Origin: an uncultured Bacilli bacterium
GTDB lineage: Bacteria; Bacillota_I; Bacilli_A; RF39; UBA660
DNA: 64,000 bases
Reading direction: 5' to 3'
Assembly (NCBI GenBank): GCA_910579455.1
Contig: CAJTUT010000002.1
Location: 44,353 to 108,352 of the forward strand
Part shown: positions 6,275 to 50,578 of the stretch, one piece after another
Position numbering within the stretch: position 1 is the first letter of the stretch
How the letters are laid out: every line of letters starts with the position of its first letter
Program-made: the position numbers and the translations under genes
Notes under the pieces: model-generated
What the model was told of the DNA's origin: nothing
The model's input: the letters and a program-made list of their open reading frames with translations, nothing else
Database searches by the model: none

Positions 6275-7204
6275 TTAAACCACATTAACACTTCTTACTG
6301 AGGTACCTGTATTCCCATCGCTATCAGTTACCTTATAATATATATAATAAGTACCTAGTCTTGTTGTATCAATTCTATCTATTTTCTCTAAAGCACCATT
6401 ATTAGAATAATAATACGTCATAATAATAGAAGAAGTAGGAATTTTATCCTTATCATCTACTACCTTACTTACCCCTGCATCTATATAATTAGTTCCATGT
6501 TCAACATTAACACTAGACTCTCCATTTAATACAATAACTGGTGTAGTACCATCTACAATATCTTGTTCCTTTACATTATCTTGAACAGCACTCACAACAA
6601 TTCTAGCAGCAAAAGTTTTTCCCTGAACACTATTGTCAGCATCTTCTGTCAACCACATTTTTAATTCGTAGTCAATTTTATCATTTCCAGATTCTGCACT
6701 CAAACTACCACTATCCAAAAGCAGACTATCTGAAAGATACCTAGCATCAGACCAATTGCTATCTCCTAATTTTAGACTATATCGAATATATTTTCTATCT
6801 AGGGTTTTCTCATTAACAGCCATTTCTTCTAAACTAACATTATATTTAGCATTCACATCACCTGTATTCTTAATTGTAAAATGATAACTATCTGTAGCCA
6901 TTCCTTCACTATCACTCATAGGTGCTAAATTAGACATATGAATTTCTTTTCCGTCTTCAAATTTCACCTTAAAAGTTCCTGCTACAATTTCTGTTTCTTT
7001 TTTACTATCGACAGAAAAACGGAAAAATGCATAGCTTGTTCCTATTACAGACATCAATAAAAAAGCTGCTAAAACAATAATTTTTGTTATTTCTCTTCTA
7101 TTTTTCTGATGTAAATTATCATTATTTAATTCTACTGTTCTAAAATGATCTCCTACTTTTCCCTTTTTAAACTGTCTTTTCTTCTTACGATCCATGAATC
7201 TCAC
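6275..7204 (-). CDS. TasA/camelysin-like (SipW-cognate-type) secreted protein with a C-terminal DUF5011/Ig-like domain; short paralogue of the giant protein
   Basis: The N-terminus has a basic tail (KKGKVGDHFRTVELNNDNLHQKNRRE), a TM helix (IIVLAAFLLMSVIGTSYAFF) and then SVDSKKETEIVAGTFKVKF...MSNLAPMSDSEG...FTIKNTGDVNAKY. This aligns by eye with CalY/TasA (GGGTFAYFSDKE...AAGTLDL...DLKPGD...FLLQNSGSLTIK). The first ~205 aa are about 70% identical to the N-terminus of the 2724-aa protein. The C-terminus (PVIVLNGESSVNVEHGTNYIDAGV...YYIYYKVTDSDGNTG) is a DUF5011-type Ig-like fold. Confidence 0.55.
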   Translation of the reverse strand: MRFMDRKKKRQFKKGKVGDHFRTVELNNDNLHQKNRREITKIIVLAAFLLMSVIGTSYAFFRFSVDSKKETEIVAGTFKVKFEDGKEIHMSNLAPMSDSEGMATDSYHFTIKNTGDVNAKYNVSLEEMAVNEKTLDRKYIRYSLKLGDSNWSDARYLSDSLLLDSGSLSAESGNDKIDYELKMWLTEDADNSVQGKTFAARIVVSAVQDNVKEQDIVDGTTPVIVLNGESSVNVEHGTNYIDAGVSKVVDDKDKIPTSSIIMTYYYSNNGALEKIDRIDTTRLGTYYIYYKVTDSDGNTGTSVRSVNVV

Positions 7205-7288
7205 ACCTTACATTTACAATTATTCTAATTACCATTCTACAATACTTTTAAAAAATAATAAAGAGAAACAGCAAAAAAAGTAGTAACT

Positions 7289-8011
7289 TTACTTACTACC
7301 TTCCCTAGAAAAAACTAAAATATTATTTTTATAAATCTTATATCGAACTTTAACCGTTCCAATATTCGTTCCAAATTTTACTATATTTTTATTAGTTAAA
7401 TACTTTTCGATATTTTTTCTATTACTATCCCCTCTCAAATAATCATTAATATTCTTTACTGCTGATTCATCCTTTTTATCCATATAAAAATTTAATACTT
7501 CATGCGGATTCTTCACTTTATATTGGTTATAAATAACTTCATAGGTATTCCTACCTTTCTTTTTCATTTTTTTTATATCATATTTTATTAAAGGAATTTC
7601 TGCTATAACAGAAGAGGATAGATCATCTGTTGTTATAATATACTCATCAGTAGTTGGATTATACGTTATATATTGCTCTATCATATATGAGGTAATCCCT
7701 ACTTCCTGTATTTGTTTTTTATTTACATTCAGATCAAAATGACGATTTATAAATTCTACTATTTCCTCTACCCCCACATTATTTTTGTGATATTCGTTTT
7801 TGTAATAAACAACAGTATAACATATATAGTGATCTAAATCATTTTTCTCTAAAACATTCATATATGTCATCATTCTATCGCTATACTTTTTAATAGTAAA
7901 TTTCTCTAAATCGGACATTCTAAATCGATTAAGTATTAATAGGGATAATAGTAATATAATTATCCCTATCATAACATATTTAATTTTAATTATTCTTTTT
8001 ATTTTCTCCAT
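7289..8011 (-). CDS. membrane-anchored hypothetical protein (N-terminal TM, ~200-aa extracytoplasmic part)
   Basis: 240 aa with an N-terminal hydrophobic segment IGIIILLLSLLILN. It sits between the two TasA-like genes, 10 bp after the giant gene stop. Its size and position resemble TapA in the tapA-sipW-tasA operon, but there is no sequence motif to support that. Confidence 0.5.
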   Translation of the reverse strand: MEKIKRIIKIKYVMIGIIILLLSLLILNRFRMSDLEKFTIKKYSDRMMTYMNVLEKNDLDHYICYTVVYYKNEYHKNNVGVEEIVEFINRHFDLNVNKKQIQEVGITSYMIEQYITYNPTTDEYIITTDDLSSSVIAEIPLIKYDIKKMKKKGRNTYEVIYNQYKVKNPHEVLNFYMDKKDESAVKNINDYLRGDSNRKNIEKYLTNKNIVKFGTNIGTVKVRYKIYKNNILVFSREGSK

Positions 8012-8021
8012 AGACTATCTC

Positions 8022-11000
8022 CTACTCCATAAATTCTAGAATACAATACTCATATCCTGTTTCTTCGTCAGTATAAAATCTTACTTCATATCCTGGTTCT
8101 ACCTCAGTTGTAGTCTCTGGTTTTGCATTTGTTGAACCGATGATCCTTCCATCATAATATTTAAATATACCATTCCCTTTTATTACACCAATTCCTGTTA
8201 CTGTAGCAGTTGCTTGTATTAGTGGATTTTCTATTGAGACATTAGCATAATTAGTACCAGATCCATCCTTTATCCCCATTATAACAGTACCACTATCTAT
8301 GTAAATACCGTAAGCCATTCTACCATGAACATCGATTCTTCCACTTTCTAGTTTTATGTTAGAATCACTATTCGATGAGTATATACCTGCTGAGGTAATA
8401 TTACGACCACTAAATACATTTGTGTTTTCCCTCAAATAAATATTCGTATTTTTTAACGTTAAATTGGCAGCTGCTTGTGTAGATATACCATAATTACTAG
8501 TAAAGTTTTCTATATTAAAATCTGTATTTTCTATATTAATATTAGAATTATCATTTATTACAATAGCTGTTGCATCAGCCGAATTTACTGTAGTATTAGA
8601 TGTAATAGCTACATTTTTTATAGATGCATCAGAACTCAATACTATACCCACATATTGAGTGATGTCACCATCACTTGATATCGAACCACCCTCTATATTT
8701 AGTTGACCTTTTCGATGACGTATTATTGGATCACTATCACTAGTACGATAGCTATATATAATATTTGTATTAAGCAAATTTAATATAGCATTTTGATTAT
8801 TATTATCGATAGTAGAGTACATAGTTCCCCCTTGGATTGTTAATTCTCCACTATTATTTACGATATCTCTATATCCAAAATAATAACCAGATACACGATA
8901 AGTATTATTCCGTAAAAGGGCTTCATGATCTTCAGAAGTTTGGTTATAAAATAGATAACCACCAGTTTTCTTATCACTTTTATTTAATGTTGAGTTGCTT
9001 ATCTTACAATTTGAATAATTATATATTCCCGATGATATTACATCTAAAGTTATATCATTCGCTACTAGATTTGCCCCTGCATAATTATGAATTCCTGAAT
9101 ATCCTTTAAATGATGTGCCATTAGCCTCTATACTTGCATTAGCAAAATTAGTAATTAGATAATAATTCGTCGTTAAATTTTCTAATAAAATATCCTCCAA
9201 AACTAAATTTCCTTTATTCGAAATGATAATTGAATTTGTACTAATACTTAACTTTCCTTGATCTGCATTATCCCTTATAGATAATGTTCCTTCATTCATT
9301 ATTGCCTGATTTAGTCTTAGATGATGCCCGTTTAAATCTAATGTAATATTTTTTCCAGCAGTATTAACTTCCTCAAATACCTTAGAATCTTTAATAATCG
9401 TCAACGTATCTCCATTCTGAGATTCTAGTACAGCTGTTTTTAAACTCTTATATTGCATCTCGCCATTTTGAACAAAATATTCTGTTGCTTTTAATGTATT
9501 TCTATGATACATGACCTCGTCAATAATTTGAGTATCATCATCAATTACATAATCATTTGGTATTTTAGAAATTGCCCCATAGTATCCAGCTATTTGCCCA
9601 GATAAAGCACCATCATAGAATGATATAGTTCCATTACCTCCATTATATAGTCCATATTGTTCTCCTATTACTTCTGGACTTTTCGTACTTACTTCATCAT
9701 CCTTATTTCCTAACACCAAATTTGCATTATTTTTTGTTTCTATTCCATATGTTTTTCCTACAATTTTTCCTCCATATACATTTAAGTTTCCATTATTCAT
9801 GATGATACCATCTCCCGATTGTCCTGTTATGGTTCCTTGATATATATTAATTGTGGCACTAGCACTTGAACTTACAAAAATTCCTTCAGAACCAGAGATT
9901 TCTCCATTATAAATATCTAGAGTTCCTCCATTTACAGTTATACGATTACTTATGTTTGGAACCTTTGTTGCATCTTCTGGATCTCCTATTACTGTATTTC
10001 CATAACTACTAATTGATCCATAGCTTCCACTTTTTATTGTTATGTTTGCTCGTTCATGTGCTGAAGGATTTACCCTATAAATATTTGAATTCTCTATTGT
10101 CACATTTGCATTATTGCTAGCTGTAACTCCACCTCTATCAATTTCTACTCCTGTAATATTGACTGTTTTACCTGTTGCTATAGAAATAGTCGTGTCATGT
10201 TTACTATAAGAACTATAACTACCTCCTGTAATATCTATATCAGTTGCAATATACAATACTCTAGCACCATTGGCTGCACTATACGTTCCTCCTGTAATTT
10301 TTCCTTTTCCTGATAGATAAATTACACTTGCTCTTTCTGTTGTTTTTATCGTTCCTGAATTTACTGTTAAATCATTTGTTGACTTGATTGCATATTCACC
10401 ACTTACTACTGATGTGTTAGTATAGGATCCTGTAGCTTCTACACTACTATCTAATATTCTCAATTTTCCTTCATTTGTAATCATTTTTGAGTTTACAAGT
10501 TGCTTTCCACCCAAATCGATGGTTATTTCTTTTCCATTTGGTATTAATACTTCTTCTGCTATTGATACAGACTCAATTACTTCTATAGTACCTTCTGTAT
10601 CTATCGCATCAAGGGCTTTCTTGAAAGTATTATACTCTTCATCTCCTACCTTTAAGAAGTTTGTCATTTTTCCTAAATATGATGTGCTATATAGGATTCC
10701 ATCGACAGTTTCTTCACCTGTTTCTATACCATATCCATCAAGAAGTGTCGTAATTACTCCTGCATGTCCTGCAGTTGTTCCTTTTAATATTCCGTCATAG
10801 AATGATATAGTTCCATTACCTCCACTATATAGTCCATATTGTTCTCCTATTACTTCTGGACTTTTCGTACTTACTTCATCATCCTTATTTCCTAACACCA
10901 AATTTGCATTATTTTTTGTTTCTATTCCATATGTTTTTCCTACAATTTTTCCTCCATATACATTTAAGTTTCCATTATTCATGATGATACCATCTCCCGA

Positions 11001-14000
11001 TTGTCCTGTTATGGTTCCTTGATATATATTAATTGTGGCACTAGCACTTGAACTTACAAAAATTCCTTCAGAACCAGAGATTTCTCCATTATAAATATCT
11101 AGAGTTCCTCCATTTACAGTTATACCATTATATTTACTGATTATAGAAGGAAGTTTAGACTTATCATTTGCATCACCTATATTTACACGACCATTAGAGG
11201 TAAGCGCTGTAGACACCGATTCATAGTTTCCCTCTATCACATTAAGTATACCACTATTATTGGATATACAATATCTCCCTTTATAGGTTCCATTTTTAAT
11301 CACTAAATTACCTTTACCATTAATACTGTAATTCTGTACATCTATATTGGCATTATCTATGATTATTGTTCCGGAAGTATAAATACCGTTTTTACCTGTA
11401 GTAATGTTCACATCGACAATTTCTACATTTGCATCTGGTGACATTTTTATTGCGTAACTACCTGTCGATTGAAAATAACCACCATCAAGAATGAACTTGT
11501 CTGAACTAGATATATAAAGGGCATCACCTGAAATGGAATTAATATGAGAATTATTATCAATAGTTAATTCACCAGCATTTATATTTAACCCGTAACCACC
11601 TGTTGCATTAACATTTGAACGAATAATATTTAAATAACCACTGCTGTCTATTGTGTTTGTGTTTGTTGTCTGGCTTATAGTAATACCATCTAAACTTAAT
11701 GTAGCAGTGCTTTTGTTAGTTATTGTTTTAGATATTTTTAAGATTCCCTTTATTACACTACTATCTATTAATTTTAGATTTCCTGAATTGGTTACATCAT
11801 ATCCTGTTTCTACAGTGTAACCTGATACATCTATAATTACCTCTTTATTTTGGGCTAAATCAAGTGGATATGCTGCTTCGAAATCCCTTATTGCATAGAT
11901 CGTTCTATTTTTCTCAAAATCAGTATTCATATCTGTTATAAAGTCAATTGCATCTTGTAAATTAAAATAATAATTTGTACTAATAATTTCGTTACTATCC
12001 TCACTACTATAATTTACTGTTTTAGCTACTGCTCTTGTCAAGATTGAAGATGTCTCTTCTAAATATATTTTTTGATAACCATTACTATAATCGTGATCTG
12101 TAAACACTTCATATCCTTCTGGTTTGTTGTATACATAACCATCAAGTCCTAATTCTGCAGTTATTAATCCATCATAGAAATTCATTATTCCTTGCTGTTC
12201 TATTCCCTTTGTTGTTCCTTCTATACATGGATTATCCTTTAATACATCCCCATCATTTTCTCCTAAGGTTAATATAGAATGATTTACTATTGCCGTATTA
12301 GTTGTGTTCTTAATAGTACCATTGTTAAGAATTGTTAATGTACCATTATTTATTATTGTACTATCATTAACTCCTGTTACGGTTTTTCCATTCAAATCAA
12401 GAGTTATATCTTTTACATTTTCTACACTTTCTATTGTGTCTTTCAACATCACAATGGTATCGCCACTTTCTTTAGCAGCAGCCAATGCCTCTTCTAAACT
12501 TTTATAATATACCTTTTCTATTCTAGCAACAGCATCACTAGAACCTATTTCTGGTTTTTTTATGGTAATCGTATACTCCTTAGTTGCTGTAGAATAATTA
12601 TTAGTTGCTAAACAGGTCACTCGTATAGTTATTACAGTCCCAATAGCTAAATTGGAAAGATTTGATATTGTTACAGTTTTATCATCTAAAGTAACTTCCG
12701 CGTCAGTTTCCGTAACCTCTACTACACTAGTTTCTCCTCCATGTGAATCTACTATCATAAAAGAGTCACTATCTTGACCTTGATCAATGATTCTTTCATT
12801 AGAACTTAAATCAATATATCCCTGTGCACGTATAATGTCATAGGCCTTTCTATTATTATCTAATGTATAATTTTCAATACGTCCTCTTCCTCCTATAACA
12901 CTAGCTATAGAGACTTCTGATACATAACTACCTACATCAACTGCTTTTGACTGAATTAATTCTAATGCTTCGTTTTCTATTCGATCATTTAAACTATATT
13001 CATAATCTGGAGCTTGTCTTTCCCCATTATAAGAAAATTCAGTTGCCTCATCCCATGTAATATTCACCCTTTTAGGAGTGATAGTATGTGCAACACAACT
13101 TGATTGAAGAGGAAGACTCCCTTCCTTTCCTTCTAATACTGCTTTTACTGAATAATTACCTGCATCAATTGGAACAGATGACAACTCATTGCTACAATTT
13201 GTATCACTATAATATTGATAAGAAAGCTGTGAAGAATCTACACCTTCTGATACTTTTGCGTCATTTGCTTCTATTTCTCTACCAGTATATTCTTCAATTT
13301 TAGAATTTAAAGAGATACTTTCTGATCTTTTAAAAATTGCATATAGAGTCATATTCCCTGTAACAGTAGGAGGTGAGGTGAAACCGCTGGAAGAATCTTT
13401 ATTAGTGTGCCATCCTAAAAAGTCATATCCACTTTTTTTTGCAACTTCATCTAAATCAACAATATCCCCATATCTTAAAGTTTTATCTGGGATATTGCAA
13501 CTACCACCTGTTGTAGTACAATCATACTTTATCACATATTTTTTTTCTTTTGCCCTTGCAATTAGTTCCTTATTTCCATGAATTGTATACTCATCATTAG
13601 GATTTCCAATAACTGTATCATGATCATACCATTGACCACTAGCATAATGATCCCTACTTATAATATCTGGTAATGTCTTCGTACAATTATGACCCTCAAC
13701 AGTATAACGATCTCCATCCATTATTTGGTAGTTATCACACTGATCACTAGTAGATCCTATACTTTTAACAGACTCATCATCATTGGTATAAGAAACTTCC
13801 CATTTTCCTTTATATACCGCATAATACACTTCATTCTTTGTTGTAATGGAAGACTCAATATGACGATAATCAAATGGTCTAGTAGATAATCCATAATAAG
13901 TTCTATCATCCCCACCTTGTGATAAAAGAACCTCTTCTGGTACAGAAACTTCTTCTTCATTAATATGATAAGTCGCACTATCTTCATTTATTAACACAGA

Positions 14001-16196
14001 GTTAACCTTATTTGTTGAAAAAATGAACCTTTGTCCGTCGTTATAATAATAAAACTTAGTATCAATATTACCAGTATATACCGCATAATACACCTGATTA
14101 TTAGTAATGTTGGTATATATATCTTCCGTTTCCATATTGTTTAACTTAGAAGAAATTCCCTTATATGGTAGTCCCCTTAAGCCAATACTATTTACCACCT
14201 CATCAGAAGCTCTATAAGTACCCTTATTTTGATTATAAATTGTTTTATTTTCTGTTATAGATTCTACATTCCCATTATTATTATAATAGACCTTAATACT
14301 AATATCTTTTGAAGTAATTGCATAATATGTAGAATTATCAGATATCATTTTTTTTGTATTAATATCCCAGCTACCACTAGTATCGTTTTCATTTTGACTA
14401 AATCCTAGGATTTTATATCCTTCTCTTTCTATAGAAGGAGAAGATATTTCACAACTGGTAGCTTCTCCCCAAATCTCACAACTTTTAGTAGTAGAATCTA
14501 ATTGACTACCATTAGCAGAAAAGGTAACAGTTACTTCCTTATATACATTTACTGTAATATCAATCATAGATGAAGTAGCTGTATCTGTGACTGTTATAGT
14601 CGTAGTTCCAACAGAAACCCCCTGAATCACTCCATTCTTATCTACTGTTGCAATACCAGAATTACTACTCGCATATGATAAAGTACCCGTATTGTTGCTA
14701 ATATCCGCTTTTTTGGATTGCCCAACCTTTAAATTAATCTCATCGTCAGAAGAAGAAATATCACCAATTTTTTTTACTTCTATTTTTTTACTTACTACAT
14801 TATGGTTGGTATCATATACCCATAAATAATAAGTACCACTACTAGGAACCACGAATTCTTTATCATATTGATTCGTTACCTCCTCCAATTTAGTATAATT
14901 AGAAGTAGTTGGCATTTTATTATGATTACTTAAATAATAACCACCTATATTTCCCTCTTTTGCCATGATATGAACTGGAATATAGTACTTGTTATCCTTT
15001 CTGGTAATTGTCTCAGTAGTAATTTCAATACTTCCCTTAGGAATGATATGAACAACTCTAACAACACTATTAGTATTTCCCTTACTATCAATAACAATAT
15101 ACTTAACTGTATAAACCCCTTCAACAAAAGAGTTTACAGTTCCAACGGTAATGATCTTATCTGTCAAGACACCATCTTCTATATCCTCAGCACTAGCACC
15201 TAAATCTTGATAGGTTTCACCCTTTTTCAATTCTAAATTTGATTCCCCTACTAAATCAATAGTAGGAATGTGGTCATCAGAAGTAGGATTAACACTAACA
15301 CTTACAACTGTACACCCAATATTTCCATTTTTATCACTAACTCTATAATAAATATAGTAAATTCCTAATTTAGAAGGGTCCACATTATCAACGGTCATAG
15401 TATTTACTCCATCATAATATTCATATGTCTTAGTAACATTAGAAATATCAATACTCTGACCTGAACTATCCTTAATTTCATATGGAACAGGATCCGTAAA
15501 AGAATCATTCAAAGAGATATGAATAGACGTATTTGGAATGTTAATTACAGGGGCAACAAGATCATTAGCAGCACCGTTACTTTGTACAGCACTCACAACA
15601 ATTCTAGCGGCGTATGTTTTTCCTTGAACACTATTGTCAGCGTCCTCTCGTAGCCACATCTTAAGTTCATAATCTACCTCATCTTTTCCAGATTCTGCAC
15701 TTAAACTACCGCTGTTTAAAAGTAAACCATCAGCAAGAGATCTTGGACTTGTCCAACTCCCATCACTTAATTTAATACTATAATTAATATATTTTCTATC
15801 TAAAGTATTAGAAGATGCTGGAGTTTCTTCTAAACTAACATGATATTTAGCATCAATAGTTCCTGTATTTTTTATGGTAAAATGATAACCATCTGTACTC
15901 ATTCCTTCACTATCACTCATAGGTGCTAAGTTAGTCAAATGAATTTCATTTCCCTCCTCAAACTCAACCTTAAACGTTCCAGCCACAACTTCATGCTCAC
16001 TAGTATTATCAATTAAAACTTTAAATAATCCGTAGCTAGTGCCAATGACAGAAATTAATAAAAACATTACTAAAATAGCAATCTTTTTATATTCCCTTTT
16101 ATTCTTCCTTTTTAAATTATCATTATTGATTTCCACAGTTCTAAAACGATCACCAATTCTACCTTTATGAAAACTTTTTTTATTTTTGTTACTCAT
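8022..16196 (-). CDS. giant (2724 aa) secreted/surface multi-domain protein: N-terminal TasA/camelysin-like domain, 2x DUF5011 Ig-like, Big_2, Flg_new (Listeria-Bacteroides) repeats, >=4 parallel beta-helix modules
   Basis: One uninterrupted ORF. N-terminus: basic tail, TM, then IGTSYGLFKV...EVVAGTFKVEF..LTNLAPMSDSEG..FTIKNTGTIDAKY (TasA/CalY-like). Two DUF5011-like domains (DHIPTIDLVGESNLELKKGETYQDLGASAEDIEDGVLTD). Big_2 (TLSYASSNSGIATVDKNGVIQGVSVGTTTITV). Flg_new repeats (TVTFSANGSQLDS...EGYKILGF; KYVIKYDC...SGYDFLGWH). Recurrent beta-helix entry motifs (SLEEALAAAKESGDTIVMLKD...ITLDLNGKTV; GDTLTIIKDSK...ITLDLNGHHL) and Gly-rich G..I.N.G.L.I rungs. No C-terminal LPXTG. Confidence 0.8.
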   Translation of the reverse strand: MSNKNKKSFHKGRIGDRFRTVEINNDNLKRKNKREYKKIAILVMFLLISVIGTSYGLFKVLIDNTSEHEVVAGTFKVEFEEGNEIHLTNLAPMSDSEGMSTDGYHFTIKNTGTIDAKYHVSLEETPASSNTLDRKYINYSIKLSDGSWTSPRSLADGLLLNSGSLSAESGKDEVDYELKMWLREDADNSVQGKTYAARIVVSAVQSNGAANDLVAPVINIPNTSIHISLNDSFTDPVPYEIKDSSGQSIDISNVTKTYEYYDGVNTMTVDNVDPSKLGIYYIYYRVSDKNGNIGCTVVSVSVNPTSDDHIPTIDLVGESNLELKKGETYQDLGASAEDIEDGVLTDKIITVGTVNSFVEGVYTVKYIVIDSKGNTNSVVRVVHIIPKGSIEITTETITRKDNKYYIPVHIMAKEGNIGGYYLSNHNKMPTTSNYTKLEEVTNQYDKEFVVPSSGTYYLWVYDTNHNVVSKKIEVKKIGDISSSDDEINLKVGQSKKADISNNTGTLSYASSNSGIATVDKNGVIQGVSVGTTTITVTDTATSSMIDITVNVYKEVTVTFSANGSQLDSTTKSCEIWGEATSCEISSPSIEREGYKILGFSQNENDTSGSWDINTKKMISDNSTYYAITSKDISIKVYYNNNGNVESITENKTIYNQNKGTYRASDEVVNSIGLRGLPYKGISSKLNNMETEDIYTNITNNQVYYAVYTGNIDTKFYYYNDGQRFIFSTNKVNSVLINEDSATYHINEEEVSVPEEVLLSQGGDDRTYYGLSTRPFDYRHIESSITTKNEVYYAVYKGKWEVSYTNDDESVKSIGSTSDQCDNYQIMDGDRYTVEGHNCTKTLPDIISRDHYASGQWYDHDTVIGNPNDEYTIHGNKELIARAKEKKYVIKYDCTTTGGSCNIPDKTLRYGDIVDLDEVAKKSGYDFLGWHTNKDSSSGFTSPPTVTGNMTLYAIFKRSESISLNSKIEEYTGREIEANDAKVSEGVDSSQLSYQYYSDTNCSNELSSVPIDAGNYSVKAVLEGKEGSLPLQSSCVAHTITPKRVNITWDEATEFSYNGERQAPDYEYSLNDRIENEALELIQSKAVDVGSYVSEVSIASVIGGRGRIENYTLDNNRKAYDIIRAQGYIDLSSNERIIDQGQDSDSFMIVDSHGGETSVVEVTETDAEVTLDDKTVTISNLSNLAIGTVITIRVTCLATNNYSTATKEYTITIKKPEIGSSDAVARIEKVYYKSLEEALAAAKESGDTIVMLKDTIESVENVKDITLDLNGKTVTGVNDSTIINNGTLTILNNGTIKNTTNTAIVNHSILTLGENDGDVLKDNPCIEGTTKGIEQQGIMNFYDGLITAELGLDGYVYNKPEGYEVFTDHDYSNGYQKIYLEETSSILTRAVAKTVNYSSEDSNEIISTNYYFNLQDAIDFITDMNTDFEKNRTIYAIRDFEAAYPLDLAQNKEVIIDVSGYTVETGYDVTNSGNLKLIDSSVIKGILKISKTITNKSTATLSLDGITISQTTNTNTIDSSGYLNIIRSNVNATGGYGLNINAGELTIDNNSHINSISGDALYISSSDKFILDGGYFQSTGSYAIKMSPDANVEIVDVNITTGKNGIYTSGTIIIDNANIDVQNYSINGKGNLVIKNGTYKGRYCISNNSGILNVIEGNYESVSTALTSNGRVNIGDANDKSKLPSIISKYNGITVNGGTLDIYNGEISGSEGIFVSSSASATINIYQGTITGQSGDGIIMNNGNLNVYGGKIVGKTYGIETKNNANLVLGNKDDEVSTKSPEVIGEQYGLYSGGNGTISFYDGILKGTTAGHAGVITTLLDGYGIETGEETVDGILYSTSYLGKMTNFLKVGDEEYNTFKKALDAIDTEGTIEVIESVSIAEEVLIPNGKEITIDLGGKQLVNSKMITNEGKLRILDSSVEATGSYTNTSVVSGEYAIKSTNDLTVNSGTIKTTERASVIYLSGKGKITGGTYSAANGARVLYIATDIDITGGSYSSYSKHDTTISIATGKTVNITGVEIDRGGVTASNNANVTIENSNIYRVNPSAHERANITIKSGSYGSISSYGNTVIGDPEDATKVPNISNRITVNGGTLDIYNGEISGSEGIFVSSSASATINIYQGTITGQSGDGIIMNNGNLNVYGGKIVGKTYGIETKNNANLVLGNKDDEVSTKSPEVIGEQYGLYNGGNGTISFYDGALSGQIAGYYGAISKIPNDYVIDDDTQIIDEVMYHRNTLKATEYFVQNGEMQYKSLKTAVLESQNGDTLTIIKDSKVFEEVNTAGKNITLDLNGHHLRLNQAIMNEGTLSIRDNADQGKLSISTNSIIISNKGNLVLEDILLENLTTNYYLITNFANASIEANGTSFKGYSGIHNYAGANLVANDITLDVISSGIYNYSNCKISNSTLNKSDKKTGGYLFYNQTSEDHEALLRNNTYRVSGYYFGYRDIVNNSGELTIQGGTMYSTIDNNNQNAILNLLNTNIIYSYRTSDSDPIIRHRKGQLNIEGGSISSDGDITQYVGIVLSSDASIKNVAITSNTTVNSADATAIVINDNSNINIENTDFNIENFTSNYGISTQAAANLTLKNTNIYLRENTNVFSGRNITSAGIYSSNSDSNIKLESGRIDVHGRMAYGIYIDSGTVIMGIKDGSGTNYANVSIENPLIQATATVTGIGVIKGNGIFKYYDGRIIGSTNAKPETTTEVEPGYEVRFYTDEETGYEYCILEFME
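9613..9943. repeat. 331-bp intragenic direct repeat, copy A (about 99.7% identical to 10795..11125)
   Basis: Direct comparison of the sequence: 9613-9943 and 10795-11125 (offset 1182 bp) differ at a single position. Both encode ...EQYGLY(S/N)GGNGTISFYDG / ITVNGGTLDIYNGEISGSEGIFVSSSASATINIYQGTITGQSGDGIIMNNGNLNVYGGKIVGKTYGIETKNNANLVLGNKDDEVSTKSPEVIG. Confidence 0.9.
10795..11125. repeat. 331-bp intragenic direct repeat, copy B
   Basis: See copy A. Flanking sequence diverges immediately (9944 g versus 11126 c). Confidence 0.9.
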
Positions 16197-16272: not shown

Positions 16273-16307
16273 TCAAAAAAAGAAGTGATGACAAACTTAT
16301 CATCACT
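16273..16307 (-). terminator. rho-independent terminator (stem agtgatga/tcatcact, 8-nt loop, U-tract on minus strand)
   Basis: Inverted repeat 16284-16291 / 16300-16307 preceded on the plus strand by an A-rich run 16275-16283. It terminates the 113-aa gene and insulates the giant gene. Confidence 0.5.
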
Positions 16308-16374
16308 TTCTAACCTGTAATGGTACAAAACATTAAAAGAAATATCATTATCTCCTTTTCAGGAATGAATCATC

Positions 16375-16716
16375 TTATTTTCCTGGCTTAAAAGCATGTA
16401 CTATAACCTTAGTTTTATCCTTACTTAACTGTGAAGTATACTCATAAAAATCATTCATTCCTTCAGAAGTTCCCTGTTCTAAATATTGAAGACACTCATC
16501 CAAATGTTGGTCAATAAACTCTCTAATTTGCAAATTATCCACATTATCTTTATTCGGTTTAGAAATTTGAAATGCATTAGGAACAGATAATTTTGTTATA
16601 TCATACTTCTGATCTCCAACCCTAAAATAATAAACAACATTATCTTCTGATTTTTCTGGTGAAGTTTCCCCAGAAATCATCTGATATAAGTCAACTACCT
16701 CAATTGTATTATCCAT
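16375..16716 (-). CDS. hypothetical acidic small protein
   Basis: 113-aa ORF with good coding appearance and no recognisable motif. Confidence 0.45.
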   Translation of the reverse strand: MDNTIEVVDLYQMISGETSPEKSEDNVVYYFRVGDQKYDITKLSVPNAFQISKPNKDNVDNLQIREFIDQHLDECLQYLEQGTSEGMNDFYEYTSQLSKDKTKVIVHAFKPGK

Positions 16717-17087: not shown

Positions 17088-19139
17088 CTATTTTTCTTTA
17101 ATAATATTCTTACTACAGAAATAAGTTATTAAGAAATAGCCTCCATAAATCATTATGATAAAGCAAGCTGTCATAATAATAGACGGTAATAATCCCTTTG
17201 TACCAAATGTTTCTAAAAAATAAGTACAAAACTTAATTCCAAAAATGGAATGAATTATAGCAAGGATCAATGGCATAAGAAAGAAAATTCCTATTTGTCT
17301 AAATAATGCCCTGTTAATTAGTTTTTCATCAGTACCTATTTTTCTTAACATCTTGAATCTCTCTTTGTTATCACTAGATTCTGATAATTCCTTTAAAGCA
17401 AGAATTGCAGCACTGGATATTAAGAAAATAATCCCTAGATATAGTCCGATAAAAGTAACCATTCCTCCAAGTCCCAAGCAGGCTTCTGCAATATCTAATC
17501 TAGTATTACTACTTGGAATAATATATTGATCATTATCTTGAACAAAGTGAAGTTTTTCCTCAAACTCCTGTTTTGCCTCTTTTGTCCTTGCCTTATAATT
17601 AGCCGTCAGTATACTACTAACACGATACTCTTCTTTTACTACGTGGTCAGGGACAACAAAGAATCCCATATTAGTATGATTACCAGACATTTGAAGAAAA
17701 CCATCTTGACATACTTTATATTTCGGACTCAAAACATGATCAAAAATGCGAATTGAAATACCCTGTTTTAGAGGAATATCCCGTATTTTTGACATAGATT
17801 CAAGATTGGCAACCACTATATATTCGTCATCATTCAAATGATAAGTCTTTTTACCAAAAAGCTTTGCAAGCTTATTATAATCGCTAATTCGAACAATATT
17901 TTCTCTCTGATCATAGTGCACAAATCTATGTTTTTCTTGTAATAGTTCAAAACTACTTCCAAGTGAATCTTTAAAAGTAAACTCAGAAGATTCATAAACA
18001 GTAACCGTTACAATATCTTTTAAATCGTCCTCTATATCAACACCACTCCGTTTTAAAGACTCCATAATTGTTAAATTAGAATTTTTCACCATTTGTTCTG
18101 TATAATAATCTGATATATCACTTGATTGTAAATTAATCACTCGATAAAGTTGAATATCCGCAGGAGCAAGTTCATTTAGATTTTTTGTCATAGAATTTTT
18201 TATTGATAAAGCACTGGATAAAACACACAAGGTTACAAATAGCATAATACAAATAATAGACATTGAAAATACAGTCGTATTTACTTTTGAACTAATCTGT
18301 CTTAAAGTAAAGCTATTTAACCCTTTATAATAAAGATTCTTCACTGCCATAACAATCTTTAGTAAAAGTCCTGATAAAGACCAAAAAATAAAGAAGGTTG
18401 AAAGGCATCCCAAGGCAATAGGAATATAAATTTCATTAGCATTGTGTATAGTATCGATACCAGCAGTTACCATGTAGTATGCGTATCCCAGAAAAATACT
18501 AGATATAATAAATATAATAACACAAAGCCATGGATTTTTAAATTTAACCCTTTCAGATTTTTTATTAAAATGTAATAAATCAATTAGCTTACATCTACCA
18601 ACACTAATGGCATTAAAGATGATAACGAATAAATACATAATACTAAAATACAAAAGACACTTCATACTAGCTTCTAGAGAAAAGATAAACTCAAATCTTT
18701 CTACATCCGCCTCAAACATACCTGCTACTAATATACTCATGAATTGGGATAAAATAAATCCTAACCCAAGCCCTACAATTAAAGAAATAATTCCAATTAT
18801 TAATGTCTCTAAAAACAGAATCAATGAAATTTTCCGTTTGCTCATACCAAGTGTTAAATAGATGCCAAATTCCTTATTTCTTCTTTTCATTAAAAATCTG
18901 GATGCATAGATAATCAGAAATCCCAAAATAAAAGAAACAAAGACACTAACTCCTGCCAACATATTAGTCATTAGTTTTATAATCTCCTTGGTTGATTTTG
19001 TAACATTCATCATAACAGTTTGAGAGTCTATCGCATTAAATACATAAAAAATAGCAACTCCCAATATCAGTGTAAAAAAATAAATCGCATAATCTTTTAT
19101 ACTTCTTATAATATTTTTAACAGAAAGTTTAAAGAGCAT
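17088..19139 (-). CDS. ABC transporter permease, FtsX-like, BceB-type (10 TM with a large extracellular domain between TM7 and TM8)
   Basis: 683 aa with four N-terminal TMs, a long hydrophilic domain (~aa 300-520), then further C-terminal TM clusters. It overlaps the upstream ATPase gene and follows an RR-HK pair, the classical BceRS-BceAB arrangement. Confidence 0.75.
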   Translation of the reverse strand: MLFKLSVKNIIRSIKDYAIYFFTLILGVAIFYVFNAIDSQTVMMNVTKSTKEIIKLMTNMLAGVSVFVSFILGFLIIYASRFLMKRRNKEFGIYLTLGMSKRKISLILFLETLIIGIISLIVGLGLGFILSQFMSILVAGMFEADVERFEFIFSLEASMKCLLYFSIMYLFVIIFNAISVGRCKLIDLLHFNKKSERVKFKNPWLCVIIFIISSIFLGYAYYMVTAGIDTIHNANEIYIPIALGCLSTFFIFWSLSGLLLKIVMAVKNLYYKGLNSFTLRQISSKVNTTVFSMSIICIMLFVTLCVLSSALSIKNSMTKNLNELAPADIQLYRVINLQSSDISDYYTEQMVKNSNLTIMESLKRSGVDIEDDLKDIVTVTVYESSEFTFKDSLGSSFELLQEKHRFVHYDQRENIVRISDYNKLAKLFGKKTYHLNDDEYIVVANLESMSKIRDIPLKQGISIRIFDHVLSPKYKVCQDGFLQMSGNHTNMGFFVVPDHVVKEEYRVSSILTANYKARTKEAKQEFEEKLHFVQDNDQYIIPSSNTRLDIAEACLGLGGMVTFIGLYLGIIFLISSAAILALKELSESSDNKERFKMLRKIGTDEKLINRALFRQIGIFFLMPLILAIIHSIFGIKFCTYFLETFGTKGLLPSIIMTACFIIMIYGGYFLITYFCSKNIIKEK

Positions 19140-19896
19140 CGTTCAAATCACCACCAAGCATTGTGACAACATCAATTATCTTGTCAAAAAATTCACGCCT
19201 TTCATCATCACCTCTATGAATTTCATTAAAAACTTTTCCATCTTTAATAAAAATAACACGAGTTGCATAACTAGCTGTAAAGGCATCATGGGTAACCATT
19301 AAAATAGTTGCTTTCAACTCCTTATTTAAAAACTGAAATCTCTCTAATAACATTTTAGCAGATTTAGAATCCAAGGCTCCTGTTGGTTCATCCGCAAGTA
19401 CTAACTTTGGATTGGTAATAATTGCCCTAGCAGATGCCACTCTTTGTTTTTGGCCACCTGACATTTGATAGGGATATTTATTTAATATATCCTGAATATT
19501 TAATTCCCTAGCTACCTCTTTAATCCGTTCATCAATCTGATTTGCCTTTACATTTTGAATAGACAATGCTAATGCAATATTTTCATAGGCAGTTAAAGTA
19601 TCCAAAAGATTAAAATCCTGAAAGATAAATCCTAACTCTTCTCGTCGAAATTTATTAAGATGATTGCCTCGTAATTTGGTAATATCCTCTCCTCCAACAT
19701 AAATATGACCAGATGTTACCTTATCAATAGTTGATATTAAATTTAGTAATGTCGTTTTTCCACTACCACTAGCTCCCATAATAGCAACAAATTCTCCCTT
19801 TTCCACCTCAAAGGAAAGATTATTGATTGCCTTCGTTAAGCTAGACTTATTTCCATAGTATTTTTCAATTTCTTCTATTCTTAAAACTTTTTCCAT
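19129..19896 (-). CDS. ABC transporter ATP-binding protein (BceA-type)
   Basis: Walker A GASGSGKTTL, signature LSGGQKQR, Walker B LVLADEPTGALD, H-loop VTHD. The start at ATG 19896 (MEKVLRIEEIEKYYG) has the RBS AAAGGAGA; the track start at 19920 is probably too far upstream. Confidence 0.85.
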   Translation of the reverse strand: MEKVLRIEEIEKYYGNKSSLTKAINNLSFEVEKGEFVAIMGASGSGKTTLLNLISTIDKVTSGHIYVGGEDITKLRGNHLNKFRREELGFIFQDFNLLDTLTAYENIALALSIQNVKANQIDERIKEVARELNIQDILNKYPYQMSGGQKQRVASARAIITNPKLVLADEPTGALDSKSAKMLLERFQFLNKELKATILMVTHDAFTASYATRVIFIKDGKVFNEIHRGDDERREFFDKIIDVVTMLGGDLNDAL

Positions 19897-19983
19897 ACTA
19901 TTTCTCCTTTCTATCACCATTTTAGTAAAAAATATGTCAAATGTCCCTCGTTTAATATTACCGAATATTACAATTTTGTAATT

Positions 19984-21003
19984 TCATCGCTCCGTATGAT
20001 AAAAATCATTGTTTCCAAAAATAATTTTAACTTCTGTACCCTCATGATAAACGGATGAAATTTCTAAAATATGTCCCATTTTCTTACATAATTTATCTAC
20101 TATATATAATCCCATTCCTGTAGACTTTGTTTTCCTCCTCCCATTTTCTCCTGTAAAAGACTTTTTGCATACATAATTTAAATCACCTTTTTGTATTCCT
20201 ATTCCATTATCTACAATATTTAAAATAGTTTGATCTTTCTGAATTTCAGCAAATATTCTTATATATGATTTTCTTTTCTCATCCCTATATTTAATGCTAT
20301 TATTGATAATCTGATTTAAAATAAACTCTAACCATTTCATATCACTATAAACTTCAATGTTTCCCAAATCCACTTCTAAATCAATTTTACTTTCTAATAA
20401 ATCATCTTTATTTTTGATTAATACATTACCGACCATTTTCTCTAAGGATACTTTTCTAATCACAAAGTCCTCCTCTGTATAATTGCTTCTTACATAATAT
20501 AATACCTGATCAATATAATTATCCAGTCTTCTAACTTGTTCAAGAAATGATTTATGAAGTTTTTCCTTATGATTATGACAAAGTAGTATCAAACTAGAAA
20601 TAGGTAGTTTTACTTCATGAATCCACATTTCTATATACTCCTTAAAATCTTCTATATCCTTTTTATTCTTTTGTACATTTTCTGACATAGATCTATCAAT
20701 TTCATATAAATTATGATATAAAATCTCTCCTTCATAAAAACTAGGCTTTGAAATAGTCTCCAATACTAAGTACTTTTGATCTAGTAACTCTATATTACTA
20801 ATAAGCTCATCATAAAATCGTTTTTTTCTAATAAAATTAATACCAAAAAGCAGAATATGCATCATAAAAAAGATAAAGGTAATAGAAAAAATTAAAGAAA
20901 TATTTATGTTAAAAACAAGAAGTAATAATAATATCACAGCATAAGAAAAGAAAATTAATAAAATAGATAAATAGTGATCCACAATGTACTTACTTAATTT
21001 CAT
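19984..21003 (-). CDS. sensor histidine kinase, intramembrane-sensing BceS-type (two N-terminal TM helices, no extracellular domain)
   Basis: 339 aa; two TMs in the first ~60 aa; an H-box-like region (IHEVKLPIS), an N-box/G-boxes (NSIKY..., DNGIGI, GMGL) and a HATPase_c C-terminus. Confidence 0.8.
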   Translation of the reverse strand: MKLSKYIVDHYLSILLIFFSYAVILLLLLVFNINISLIFSITFIFFMMHILLFGINFIRKKRFYDELISNIELLDQKYLVLETISKPSFYEGEILYHNLYEIDRSMSENVQKNKKDIEDFKEYIEMWIHEVKLPISSLILLCHNHKEKLHKSFLEQVRRLDNYIDQVLYYVRSNYTEEDFVIRKVSLEKMVGNVLIKNKDDLLESKIDLEVDLGNIEVYSDMKWLEFILNQIINNSIKYRDEKRKSYIRIFAEIQKDQTILNIVDNGIGIQKGDLNYVCKKSFTGENGRRKTKSTGMGLYIVDKLCKKMGHILEISSVYHEGTEVKIIFGNNDFYHTER

Positions 21004-21662
21004 AATAAAATATATCCCTGTCCCTTTCTAGTTTCAATCACATTACAGTATCCCAATTCACTCAATTTACTTCTCAACCGACTAATATTAACTGTTAATG
21101 CATTATCATTAATGTACTCATCGTTATTCCATAAATCTGTCATTAAAACATCTCGGGTTACAATCTTTCCTTGATTATTTAATAAATAACTAAATACAAT
21201 CATTTCGTTTTTGGTTAATTCTATTTCCTCCTCATTCTTTTTTAAAATCCCTTTACTTGGAAAAAATTCTAATTCTCTATATTTGTAAGAGTCAACTTTT
21301 TGTTCCATCCTTCTCAATACATTTTGAATTCTTAAAAGTAAAATAGTTGGGTTATATGGTTTAGTAATATAATCATCTGCCCCATAAGACATAGATAGAA
21401 CCTCATCCAATTCACTAACACGACTAGTAACCATAATAATGGGAATATTCGTCTTCTTTCTAACTTCCCTCAACAAAGTTTCTCCATTTAAAAAAGGAAT
21501 GTTAATATCTAATAAAACTAAATCAGCATTACTATTTATAATTTCCTCAAAAGAATTGGAAAAATTATTTAAGATGTTTACAACATAACCTGAATGTTCT
21601 AATAGATTCTTTAACTCTTTGCAAATTGTTTGATCGTCCTCTACTATCATAATTCTTTTCAC
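21000..21662 (-). CDS. OmpR-family response regulator (BceR-type)
   Basis: Receiver motifs MIVEDD..., LVLLDINIP, SELDEVL plus a winged-helix C-terminus (LTKNEMIVFSYLL..., RLRSKL). The track ORF (start 21752) carries a hydrophobic N-terminal artefact; the likely start is GTG 21662 or ATG 21650, after a GGTGGA RBS. Confidence 0.8.
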   Translation of the reverse strand: MKRIMIVEDDQTICKELKNLLEHSGYVVNILNNFSNSFEEIINSNADLVLLDINIPFLNGETLLREVRKKTNIPIIMVTSRVSELDEVLSMSYGADDYITKPYNPTILLLRIQNVLRRMEQKVDSYKYRELEFFPSKGILKKNEEEIELTKNEMIVFSYLLNNQGKIVTRDVLMTDLWNNDEYINDNALTVNISRLRSKLSELGYCNVIETRKGQGYILL

Positions 21663-21957
21663 AAAACATTCCACCTTTAATAATAGTATATCATAAAATA
21701 AAACTTTAAAAAGAATAGAAAAATTTGGGTCCAATTTTTTACAAAAAATCATTATAGAATGATGACAATTTTAAAAGTTTAGTAAAATATTATAAATTTC
21801 TTCTCAATATTTACCCATATCAATATAGAACATTTTAAGAATGTTCTTTTCATGTGATTTAATTAGGCAATTTCTAAAGTTTTAGCTCTAATTGTTTGGA
21901 TTTCCTTCAATTTTTCCTAACAAAACAGCCTCACATACATGATATCCAGATTTTATT

Positions 21958-49511: not shown

Positions 49512-50063
49512 TTAGACTCTTAGTTTTATATTTGAAGACTCCTCTATACTATACTCATATATTTTTGCGTTTTCACATTCTAATAACGTAGAATCGATTC
49601 CATAACAATACCAATCGATTGCTCTTTTAATTCCACCATGTGTTACTAGTAAAATACTTTTATCATAATACTTTACTTTTATCTCATTCAAAAAGCTAAC
49701 AGTTCTTTCATAAACACTTTTCATAGATTCTAACTCAGGATACTTTTTTTGTGATGAATAACTCCAAAATTCTTTCCAATCCAAGTCTTCAAAAGAAACA
49801 CCTTCATATAAGCCCATATTCCTCTCTTCTAGTCTTTTATCGACGAATACAGGTATCTTTTTATCTAAATTAAATAAATCCAATGTATCAATCACTCTTT
49901 TTATAGGTGAGGAAAATACCATATTAATATCCAATTGTCTTAACTTTTCTCCTACCCTTATCGCCTGAATTTTTCCATTTTTATTTAACGGTTCTTCTTT
50001 ACTAGCAATCAACTTGTTTTTGCCCATTTCAGTTTCGCCATGTCTAACTACATAAATCTTCAT
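49512..50063 (-). CDS. histidine phosphatase (phosphoglycerate mutase family) protein
   Basis: RHG motif MKIYVVRHGETE, downstream SSPIKRVIDT and LVTHGG. Confidence 0.75.
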   Translation of the reverse strand: MKIYVVRHGETEMGKNKLIASKEEPLNKNGKIQAIRVGEKLRQLDINMVFSSPIKRVIDTLDLFNLDKKIPVFVDKRLEERNMGLYEGVSFEDLDWKEFWSYSSQKKYPELESMKSVYERTVSFLNEIKVKYYDKSILLVTHGGIKRAIDWYCYGIDSTLLECENAKIYEYSIEESSNIKLRV

Positions 50064-50578
50064 TACTCTTTTATTCCCATTCGATGAGGTGGAAATAATG
50101 TTAAAGAGGTTTTGCCAATAATATTTTTCTTTGGAATAAAACCGATCATTCTACTATCCATAGAATTTCCTCTATTATCACCCAGAACAAAATAATAATG
50201 ATCTGGTACCTGTTTGGAATCTAATTCCTCTAACGTAAAGTCTTCTGTTTTTTTATGAGAGAAATTTTCATCCACTTTCTTTCCATTAATATATAAAATA
50301 TTATCTTTATATTCAACATTTTCTCCAGGAAGGCCAATTACCCGTTTAATTAAATATTCCTTATCTTGTCTTATTACAACAATATCAAACCGTTTAATAG
50401 GAGAAAATCTATAACTTAATTTGTCTAAAATCATAATATCCTTATTTTCTAAAGTATCGTCCATAGAATTCCCATTCACCTTAATAAAAGCAACTACATA
50501 ATATCTTAAAAGTAATACCACGATAATTACTATAATATATATTCCTACTTCTTTAAAAAATTTTTTTGCCTTTTCCAT
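50063..50578 (-). CDS. lepB: signal peptidase I (P-type, Ser/Lys dyad; LepB/SipS-like)
   Basis: Box B NGNSM (the catalytic Ser), box D KRVIGLPGE (the catalytic Lys) and box E GDNRGNSMDSR; 171 aa; an N-terminal TM. Confidence 0.85.
   Translation of the reverse strand: MEKAKKFFKEVGIYIIVIIVVLLLRYYVVAFIKVNGNSMDDTLENKDIMILDKLSYRFSPIKRFDIVVIRQDKEYLIKRVIGLPGENVEYKDNILYINGKKVDENFSHKKTEDFTLEELDSKQVPDHYYFVLGDNRGNSMDSRMIGFIPKKNIIGKTSLTLFPPHRMGIKE

Follow-up and report, generated by a model that had tools for sequence, protein, structure and literature searches.

A divergent TasA-type module heads a giant adhesin-like protein and its short paralogue in uncultured gut Bacilli

Introduction

TasA-type fibers are known as assemblies of small, single-domain biofilm matrix subunits that are served by a dedicated peptidase. 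The subject here is a locus at 6275–16196 of a 64-kb stretch of contig CAJTUT010000002.1 from an uncultured member of the Bacilli (the window, to the whole of which all coordinates refer). It encodes a giant protein of 2724 residues and a short paralogue that begin with the same N-terminal domain, with a 240-residue membrane protein between them. By fold and profile similarity the shared domain is a divergent module of the TasA superfamily (camelysin/TasA/AbpX), and the architecture, in which giant adhesin passengers follow a TasA-type module and no SipW is found in the vicinity, is recurrent in uncultured gut Bacilli and apparently undescribed.

The reference proteins are TasA of Bacillus subtilis and CalY (camelysin) of B. 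cereus, of Pfam family PF12389, to which identity here is about 16%, with the window proteins scoring under the Pfam cut-off. TasA has a core of 234 residues against a compact one of about 150 residues here. Unlike TasA and CalY, the proteins here have a conserved basic n-region of 36 residues, no adjacent sipW or tapA, and a fusion to 100–2500 residues of adhesin-type domains. TasA forms fibers, as the present family may. Donor-strand complementation is the established mechanism of the superfamily, as described for TasA (PMC9674648), BsaA (PMC11580942), AbpA (PMC9245690), and the cannulae (PMC12518558).

BsaA and BsaB of Clostridium perfringens, from the locus sipW-bsaA-bsaB-bsaC, are likewise remote TasA homologues in the Bacillota, with several paralogues per locus, suggesting heteropolymers, and with an N-terminal disordered segment as the predicted donor strand. 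They differ in being small and single-domain, and BsaA is served by a dedicated SipW and carries an Asn-Glu-Lys isopeptide triad, whereas the donor segment here has no conserved Asn. The AbpX, AbpA, and Tafi loci combine a TasA-type major subunit with larger TasA-module proteins (tip or anchor) for which donor-strand co-assembly is predicted, and minor subunits, tip adhesins, and anchors that are expected to co-assemble are on record for TasA-superfamily loci (bioRxiv 10.64898/2026.01.04.697558, PMC9245690). As a rule, such loci carry genes for a dedicated signal peptidase I, a DUF5305 accessory protein, and anchors of the SLH or LPXTG type, all of which are missing here, and the passengers here are much larger.

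The cannula proteins CanA and CanX (PMC12518558) are also members of the superfamily with no dedicated peptidase or chaperone nearby, and are presumed to be processed by the general signal peptidase I and to self-assemble; they differ in being archaeal, calcium-dependent, tube-forming, and single-domain. A nearby SipW-type peptidase is, as CanX illustrates, not universal in the superfamily (PMC12518558). Given the published minor subunits and tip adhesins and the peptidase-less cannulae, the giant-plus-small layout and the absence of sipW are within known variation. A functional analogy, with no claim of homology, is to the two-domain tip adhesins of the FimH type in chaperone-usher pili, in which an adhesive passenger is linked to a pilin-type sandwich that is strand-complemented into the fiber. 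In FimH the order is reversed, with an N-terminal lectin and a C-terminal pilin domain, and the machinery is the Gram-negative chaperone-usher pathway.

The locus and its two paralogues

Three minus-strand open reading frames (ORFs) in the same orientation fill 6275–16196. They and their parts are as follows.

8022–16196, minus: giant protein gene, 2724 aa, with signal peptide, TasA-like module, immunoglobulin (Ig)-like and Flg_new domains, and a long repeat-rich C-terminal region
16029–16196, minus: giant aa 1–56, long basic n-region with KGRIGDRFRTV, hydrophobic helix, and predicted signal peptidase I site GTSYG|LF
15990–16028, minus: giant aa 57–69 (LFKVLIDNTSEHE), candidate N-terminal donor strand and polar linker, assigned from the family logo and the TasA register
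15576–15989, minus: giant aa 70–207, TasA-like beta-sandwich core, AGTFKV ... NLAPMSDSEGM ... FTIKNTG ... QGKTYAARIVVSAVQ
15045–15554, minus: giant aa ~215–384, two PF16403 domains (Bact_surface_Ig-like, formerly DUF5011), the first a paralogue of the small-protein Ig domain
14571–14699, minus: giant aa 500–542, Big_2 Ig-like domain (Pfam, E = 5.5 × 10−6)
13338–13538, minus: giant aa 887–953, Flg_new (Listeria-Bacteroides repeat), the better of two stretches (Pfam)
8025–12449, minus: giant aa ~1250–2724, Gly/Asn/Ile-rich repeat region, probably a beta-solenoid, the fold being judged by eye
7289–8011, minus: middle protein gene, 240 aa (possibly 227 aa), single-pass membrane protein
6275–7195, minus: small paralogue gene, 306 aa from the ATG at 7195
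7028–7195, minus: small paralogue aa 1–56, signal peptide
6989–7027, minus: small paralogue aa 57–69 (FFRFSVDSKKETE), donor-like segment
6575–6988, minus: small paralogue aa 70–207, TasA-like core
6281–6535, minus: small paralogue aa 221–305, PF16403 Ig domain (Pfam, E = 8.9 × 10−11)

BLASTP aligns the N-terminus of the giant with the small protein at 56% identity over 306 residues (E = 2 × 10−120), which makes the small protein a paralogue of the first ~300 residues of the giant, the N-domain and the first Ig domain included. The motif at the end of the hydrophobic helix reads GTSYAFF or GTSYGLF, and both proteins carry (I/V)VAGTFKV.F..G.EIH..NLAPMSDSEGM.TD.YHFTIKNTG...AKY. The original prediction, made from the letters of the window, had described this three-ORF layout, the paralogy, and these motifs correctly. 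The small-protein ORF (6275–7204, 309 aa from a GTG) lies where it was predicted, and its length is corrected to 306 aa because the orthologues begin at the ATG.

On the giant, Pfam finds two stretches each of PF16403 and Flg_new and one Big_2 domain, all significant, so the proposed Ig-like and Flg_new modules hold; the parallel beta-helix proposed along with them is seen weakly, as PF13229 (Beta_helix, E = 0.019), the sole Pfam match to the C-terminal ~1500 residues. The giant has no LPXTG motif and no C-terminal transmembrane helix, ending in ...CILEFME.

The shared domain as a TasA-superfamily module

To the 49 relatives that consist of the N-domain only, PF12389 (Peptidase_M73, camelysin/TasA) is the one family that matches repeatedly, in 13/49 at E ≤ 0.01 with a best of 2.8 × 10−7, and no other family rises above 2/49. 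One relative, P0124, scores exactly 22.5 bits, which is the Pfam gathering cut-off. All PF12389 matches with listed coordinates pair the N-terminus of the protein with the N-terminus of the profile. TIGR04088, the hidden Markov model (HMM) for the SipW-dependent type of signal peptide, matches neither window protein and is found in 4/49 relatives, and the TasA equivalog NF046066 is found in 2/49. In the reverse direction, the TasA precursor scores 19.8 bits with an HMM made from these 49 relatives, in an alignment that runs from the signal peptide through the donor strand and along the first strand to NLSNLKP; residues 28–261 of this TasA query were verified against PDB 8aur. A PDB profile search with the family alignments has no significant match and lists AbpX first (E = 0.069). 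The TasA chains in PDB lack the signal peptide, which carries much of the alignment score.

The AlphaFold2 model of the small protein, from a 28-sequence alignment, has a predicted local distance difference test (pLDDT) score of 73.9 and consists of a helix (residues 25–58), a low-confidence stretch (52–72), a nine-strand sandwich (68–205), and an Ig domain (220–305). Modeled in this way, the N-domain core appears as a jellyroll-type beta-sandwich structurally similar to TasA, and TasA is its best long-alignment structural match, as the original prediction would have it; this supports the assignment independently of the sequence evidence. Foldseek against PDB with the two-domain model is noisy and returns mostly Ig-like matches.

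The family is broad. When 1.84 billion cluster representatives are scanned in full by HMMER for the N-domain profile, there are 6137 matches at E ≤ 10−3, some of the weakest of which may be canonical TasA proteins, and 2872 at E ≤ 10−10. Among the best 150 of the 6137, the domain begins within the first 40 residues in 149; 43 are 260 aa or shorter, some of them fragments, and 17 reach 1000 aa or more, the longest having 3667 aa. Of 18 long members scanned, 16 contain PF16403, 14 Flg_new, and 9 Big_2, in a layout like that of the window giant. All genomic matches are in metagenome-assembled genomes (MAGs) labeled uncultured Bacilli, Erysipelotrichaceae, 'Tenericutes', or Candidatus Onthousia, from sources that include mouse, rabbit, and Hadza human gut. 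Recurrent long members with the N-module mean that TasA-module proteins of this size are common in metagenomes, so the size and architecture are not unique to the window; like the original prediction, which knew of no such protein described, we found no paper describing a TasA-module protein of such size. What emerges is a TasA-type module at the head of thousands of proteins that lack annotation, many being giant adhesins, in never-cultured gut Bacilli. The module appears there without the usual accessory genes, and a dedicated family profile would annotate a large block of such proteins. One further locus (L023, 1799–12161) has an N-module fragment (P0014, 120 aa) followed by a 3482-aa ORF with PF16403, probably one giant of more than 3600 aa that was split by a frameshift or an assembly error.

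Several results weigh against a TasA-type assignment. The small protein scores 19.5–20.4 bits against PF12389 (E = 5 × 10−4 to 10−3, residues 37–122 on profile positions 7–83), which is under the cut-off, and the giant N-domain taken alone has no match at E ≤ 1, which rules out strict PF12389 membership for the window proteins. Comparison of the family profile with the single TasA sequence by hhalign is weak (E = 0.002–0.04), the HMM score is owed partly to the hydrophobic signal-peptide region, and the FxIxNxG strand is common to many beta-sandwich families, as seen in weak matches to HYDIN/VesB, DUF11, and FixG_C. These points suit a reading in which both proteins are secreted or wall-associated and do not polymerize, the N-domain being a generic beta-sandwich (Ig, CARDB, or DUF11-like, possibly ligand-binding) whose likeness to TasA reflects a common fold and the shape of a signal peptide rather than a shared assembly mechanism. 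We consider that reading quite unlikely, in view of PF12389 being the sole recurrent family and always in N-terminal register, the appearance of TIGR04088 and NF046066 among the relatives, the structural match to TasA, and the position of the domain at the very start of nearly all of the best representatives, which is unusual for a generic binding module. Homology of the N-domain to TasA at the superfamily level is thus highly probable, and the likeness to TasA and CalY that was first noticed by eye holds at that level, through the relatives and the fold, while falling short of PF12389 and TIGR04088 for the window proteins themselves.

Predicted cleavage region, n-region, and candidate donor strand

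All members of the 28-sequence alignment have S54 and Y55, followed by A, G, or S. A family logo was made from 120 representatives anchored on the motif by a pattern that forced the positions [ST]-[YFWL]-[AGSC]. At these forced positions it has S/T at −3, Y in 89%, and A/G/S at −1. Outside of them, and so unforced, there is a hydrophobic core of ~17 residues and a G in 82%, two residues before the S/T. After the motif come two hydrophobic residues (94% and 92%), an alternating t-x-t-[LVIF] strand, G/S-K-K-E, and then the AGT[LF]x[VI]xF strand. The motif G-x-S-Y-[AGS]|[FL][FL] agrees with the (−3, −1) rule for type I signal peptidases and lies in the same register as TasA GGTWA|AFNDIKSKDATFASGTLDL; the original prediction had noted a cleavage-region motif of the SipW-cognate type here, and the counterpart in TasA is GGTWA|AF. 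From this motif, a cut after residue 56, G-T-S-Y-[A/G], by a type I signal peptidase is probable. The prepilin leader G|F[TS]LxE is absent from both proteins and from the family logo.

The segment that follows is the donor-strand candidate. It is in register with residues 28–38 of TasA, which form the donor strand there with hydrophobic contacts by F29, I32, and F39 (PMC9674648), and in the monomer model of the small protein the stretch (residues 52–72) has low pLDDT. Between the paralogues this segment is identical at 4/13 positions against 66% across the whole domain, and between orthologues at 12/13; it is the most divergent stretch between the paralogues, a pattern expected of subunit-specific strands. 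The logo has no conserved Asn in the post-cleavage strand, and FFRFSVDSKKETE of the small protein has none at all, by which a BsaA-type homologue locked by an Asn-Lys-Glu isopeptide triad was rejected.

The n-regions of both proteins (16090–16196 and 7090–7195) share the motif [KR]x[FY][HK]KG[KR][IV]GD[HR][FY]R[KT]V about 20 residues before the hydrophobic helix, and relatives down to ~40% identity retain it. In the close clade, which comprises the giants and the small paralogues, it is part of a conserved 36-residue basic cytoplasmic tail with KG[KR][IV]GD[HR][FY]R.V. A signal peptide of the KxYKxGKxW type was tried and dropped, the likeness of the n-regions being by eye only, with no TIGR03715 match.

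A database protein of 280 aa (P0002), found on 3 contigs (NCBI, ENA, and Logan), is identical to the small protein of the window except for a 26-aa in-frame deletion, TDSYHFTIKNTGDVNAKYNVSLEEMA, between EGMA and EEMA, which takes out the invariant FxIxNxG strand. It may represent a strain whose small subunit has been inactivated, or else an artifact of assembly.

Proposed assembly and the signal-anchor alternative

We tentatively favor, at somewhat less than an even chance, a reading in which a cleaved Sec signal is followed by a TasA-type module that polymerizes or docks by donor-strand complementation and carries adhesin domains. Both proteins would be exported by Sec, and the signal peptide would be cut after residue 56 by the housekeeping LepB or by an unlinked type I enzyme. 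Cleavage would expose a short amphipathic N-terminal strand followed by the compact TasA-type beta-sandwich. The module would be the conserved assembly or attachment end at the cell surface, and the variable remainder an adhesive passenger, which in the giant consists of Ig-like, Flg_new, and solenoid-like repeats and in the small protein of a single Ig domain. Donor-strand complementation between modules would be the most likely mechanism, with the giant as a mega-subunit or distal adhesin and the small paralogue as a short stalk or base subunit of the same fiber. The conserved amphipathic N-terminal strand fits this, as do its low confidence in the monomer model, the strong constraint on the module, and the lack of any other retention signal on an exported giant of 2724 residues.

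The only signal peptidase in the window, and so its only candidate processing enzyme, is the one that the original prediction had also named, in stating correctly that there is no sipW.

50063–50578, minus: housekeeping P-type signal peptidase I (LepB), TIGR02227 at 169.6 bits, adjoining rplS

The signal-peptidase motif S.SM.P is found in no frame of the window. A SipW-type peptidase was found neither in the window nor within 10 kb of the family gene in any of the 23 related loci, the search covering the window and L001–L021 by motif (S.SM.P, KGDxN) and L001–L006, L022, and L023 by precomputed Pfam annotation; Peptidase_S24 and S26 are absent from the annotated neighborhoods of the latter eight. 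Motif search finds LPXTG neither in the window nor in the related loci. The sole sortase-motif match, TLxTC, is spurious, in a 59-aa plus-strand ORF, and with no sortase gene found in the window or the loci the proteins do not qualify as sortase-anchored LPXTG adhesins.

The main rival to cleavage and assembly is an uncleaved signal anchor, in which the helix tethers each protein, the sandwich is a membrane-proximal spacer that does not polymerize, and the small paralogue acts independently. A conserved basic n-region of 36 residues is unusual for a cleaved signal peptide and suggests an N-terminus that is retained and functional; an anchor explains this tail equally well, together with the lack of a dedicated SipW and the fact that most family genes stand singly amid housekeeping genes and have no conserved partners, which fits an autonomous anchor as well as a fiber. 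In the absence of sortase and LPXTG it would account directly for retention, and the presence of at least 3 giants of about 1800 aa with the same N-module in one MAG (CAKOXP01, L011–L013) is as expected of a generic anchor. Set against it are the small residues kept family-wide at −3 (S/T) and −1 (A/G/S), with G at −5 in 82%, and the exact register of the motif with the sites at which TasA and CalY are cleaved. Conservation of the post-motif segment as an amphipathic strand would be needless in a passive linker. There are also many N-domain-only proteins of 170–220 aa, with 43/150 of the best at 260 aa or less (fragments included), which would be anchors of nothing. On this evidence we judge the uncleaved anchor somewhat unlikely.

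If strand-exchange assembly is true, it would be a widespread and simple route to adhesive fibers, or to the attachment of huge adhesins without sortase, with relevance to host colonization by uncultured gut Bacilli. A bolder form, which we think unlikely, makes the TasA-like N-module a general means of display that needs no sortase, chaperone, or SipW, with giants as mega-subunits and short paralogues as stalk subunits. It would imply fibers with arms of more than 2000 residues, a previously unrecognized fiber type of about 6000 clusters at 50% identity, and possibly an export signal of its own in the conserved cytoplasmic n-region motif.

Sister species, selection, and the middle gene

In a sister species (GCA_948850035.1 and other assemblies) the order is giant (2722 aa), a 243-aa protein, the small protein (306 aa), parE, and parC. 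Between the window and the sister species, amino acid identity and the ratio of nonsynonymous to synonymous substitution rates (dN/dS) are 64% and 0.29 for the giant, 54% and 0.24 for the 240-aa protein, 81% and 0.13 for the small protein, and 97% and 0.018 for parE. All three locus genes are under purifying selection. The first 200 residues of the giant are 94% identical to those of its orthologue and the C-terminal blocks 25–60%, and therefore the N-module is the constrained part while the passenger evolves fast, fastest in the repeat-rich C-terminal region. Within that region a 300-nt direct repeat (9541–9840 and 10723–11022, 88% nucleotide identity, spacing 1182 nt) encodes a nearly identical segment of ~100 residues twice (ITVNGGTLDIYNGEISGSEG...), and looks like a recent internal duplication.

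The sister-species loci (L001–L004) also have two items that are absent from the window, an insertion sequence transposase (rve) remnant between the 243-aa and small genes and an extra 260-aa gene with no family match between the small gene and parE (in L002, for example, at 9063–9744 and 11205–11987).

The original prediction had put the 240-aa protein in the position of TapA and had seen in the order giant-X-small a mirror of tapA-sipW-tasA. A true operon of this type, with the 240-aa protein as a TapA-like nucleator or anchor, would agree with the place of the gene between the paralogues, 10 nt past the stop codon of the giant and co-oriented, and with its being kept in the sister species under purifying selection. 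No terminator-like site is found between the three genes by a consensus scan, a weak measure, which fits a single transcription unit. The likeness to TapA of B. subtilis is limited to a size of ~240 aa, an N-terminal hydrophobic helix, and the place beside TasA-like genes. The protein does not detectably resemble TapA or TasA in sequence, profile, or fold, has no family match, and lacks both the G-x-S-Y-A motif and a TasA-like donor motif. The predicted structure is a mixed alpha/beta one, whereas TapA is all-beta; since the model is of low confidence, fold-search matches are uninformative. Among 5.8 billion proteins there are 3 homologues, all from close relatives, and tblastn finds the gene only in the sister-species loci L001–L003 and not in L004–L021. 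An identical database entry begins 13 codons later, giving 227 aa.

TapA identity was rejected on these grounds, and the operon analogy is likewise unsupported, the middle gene having no sign of TapA and no SipW being found nearby. As a statement of homology the TapA-type operon is already largely refuted, and overall it is very unlikely. The 240-aa protein is a genus-restricted orphan and not a conserved partner of the family, and it would be a lineage-specific accessory. As for synteny, the gene order persists in the sister species, and elsewhere family genes are mostly solitary.

Neighborhood and pilus-like genes

The gene content of the window is that of a core chromosome, with parE/parC, SecDF, RelA, TopA, MurC, and aminoacyl-tRNA synthetases, and a search of it turns up neither a further family member nor a sortase, an LPXTG protein, or a pilin. 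Upstream of the locus, at 17088–21752, an FtsX-type permease, an ABC ATPase, a histidine kinase, and an OmpR-type response regulator look, judging from Pfam domains, like a BceAB/BceRS-like peptide-resistance module; no connection to the fiber genes was found. Between this module and the giant gene there is a 113-aa ORF (16375–16716) without any family match.

16283–16308, minus: terminator-like hairpin upstream of the giant gene, from a consensus scan that is weak (2 sites against 2.3 expected by chance)

The last alternative connects the family proteins, as substrates or as partners, with a type IV pilus or Com-like machinery. It is suggested by an ATPase of the T2SSE type and two genes for type IV pilin-like proteins (GFMLAE and GFTAIE) that adjoin family member P0012 in one related locus (L006, 11899–16157), by a pilin gene in L017, and by L021 (9929–20001), in which a 254-aa ORF at 15427–16188, situated between two family giants (1173 and 1207 aa), looks by its sequence like a prepilin peptidase (CDKCHHELSFIDLIPLLS). 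In C. perfringens the secretion of BsaA and BsaC depends on type IV pilus genes (PMC11580942). The three loci are, by our own estimate, close to chance for Com genes in Bacilli, the prepilin motif is missing from the family, and the family HMM does not match the pilin-like protein of L006. Because the association is seen in 3/23 loci only and the window has no pilus genes, it was rejected as a general feature, and as an explanation of the family we hold it to be highly improbable.

The 711-aa pilin-like protein of L006, for which a hidden TasA-like domain was considered and rejected by HMM, shares a 47-aa module with the C-terminus of family member P0013 (55% identity, E = 10−12; NNYVWYSGHLWRAVSID), a shared passenger that counts in favor of the pilus alternative. 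The same passenger is therefore carried either on a pilin or on a TasA-like N-module.

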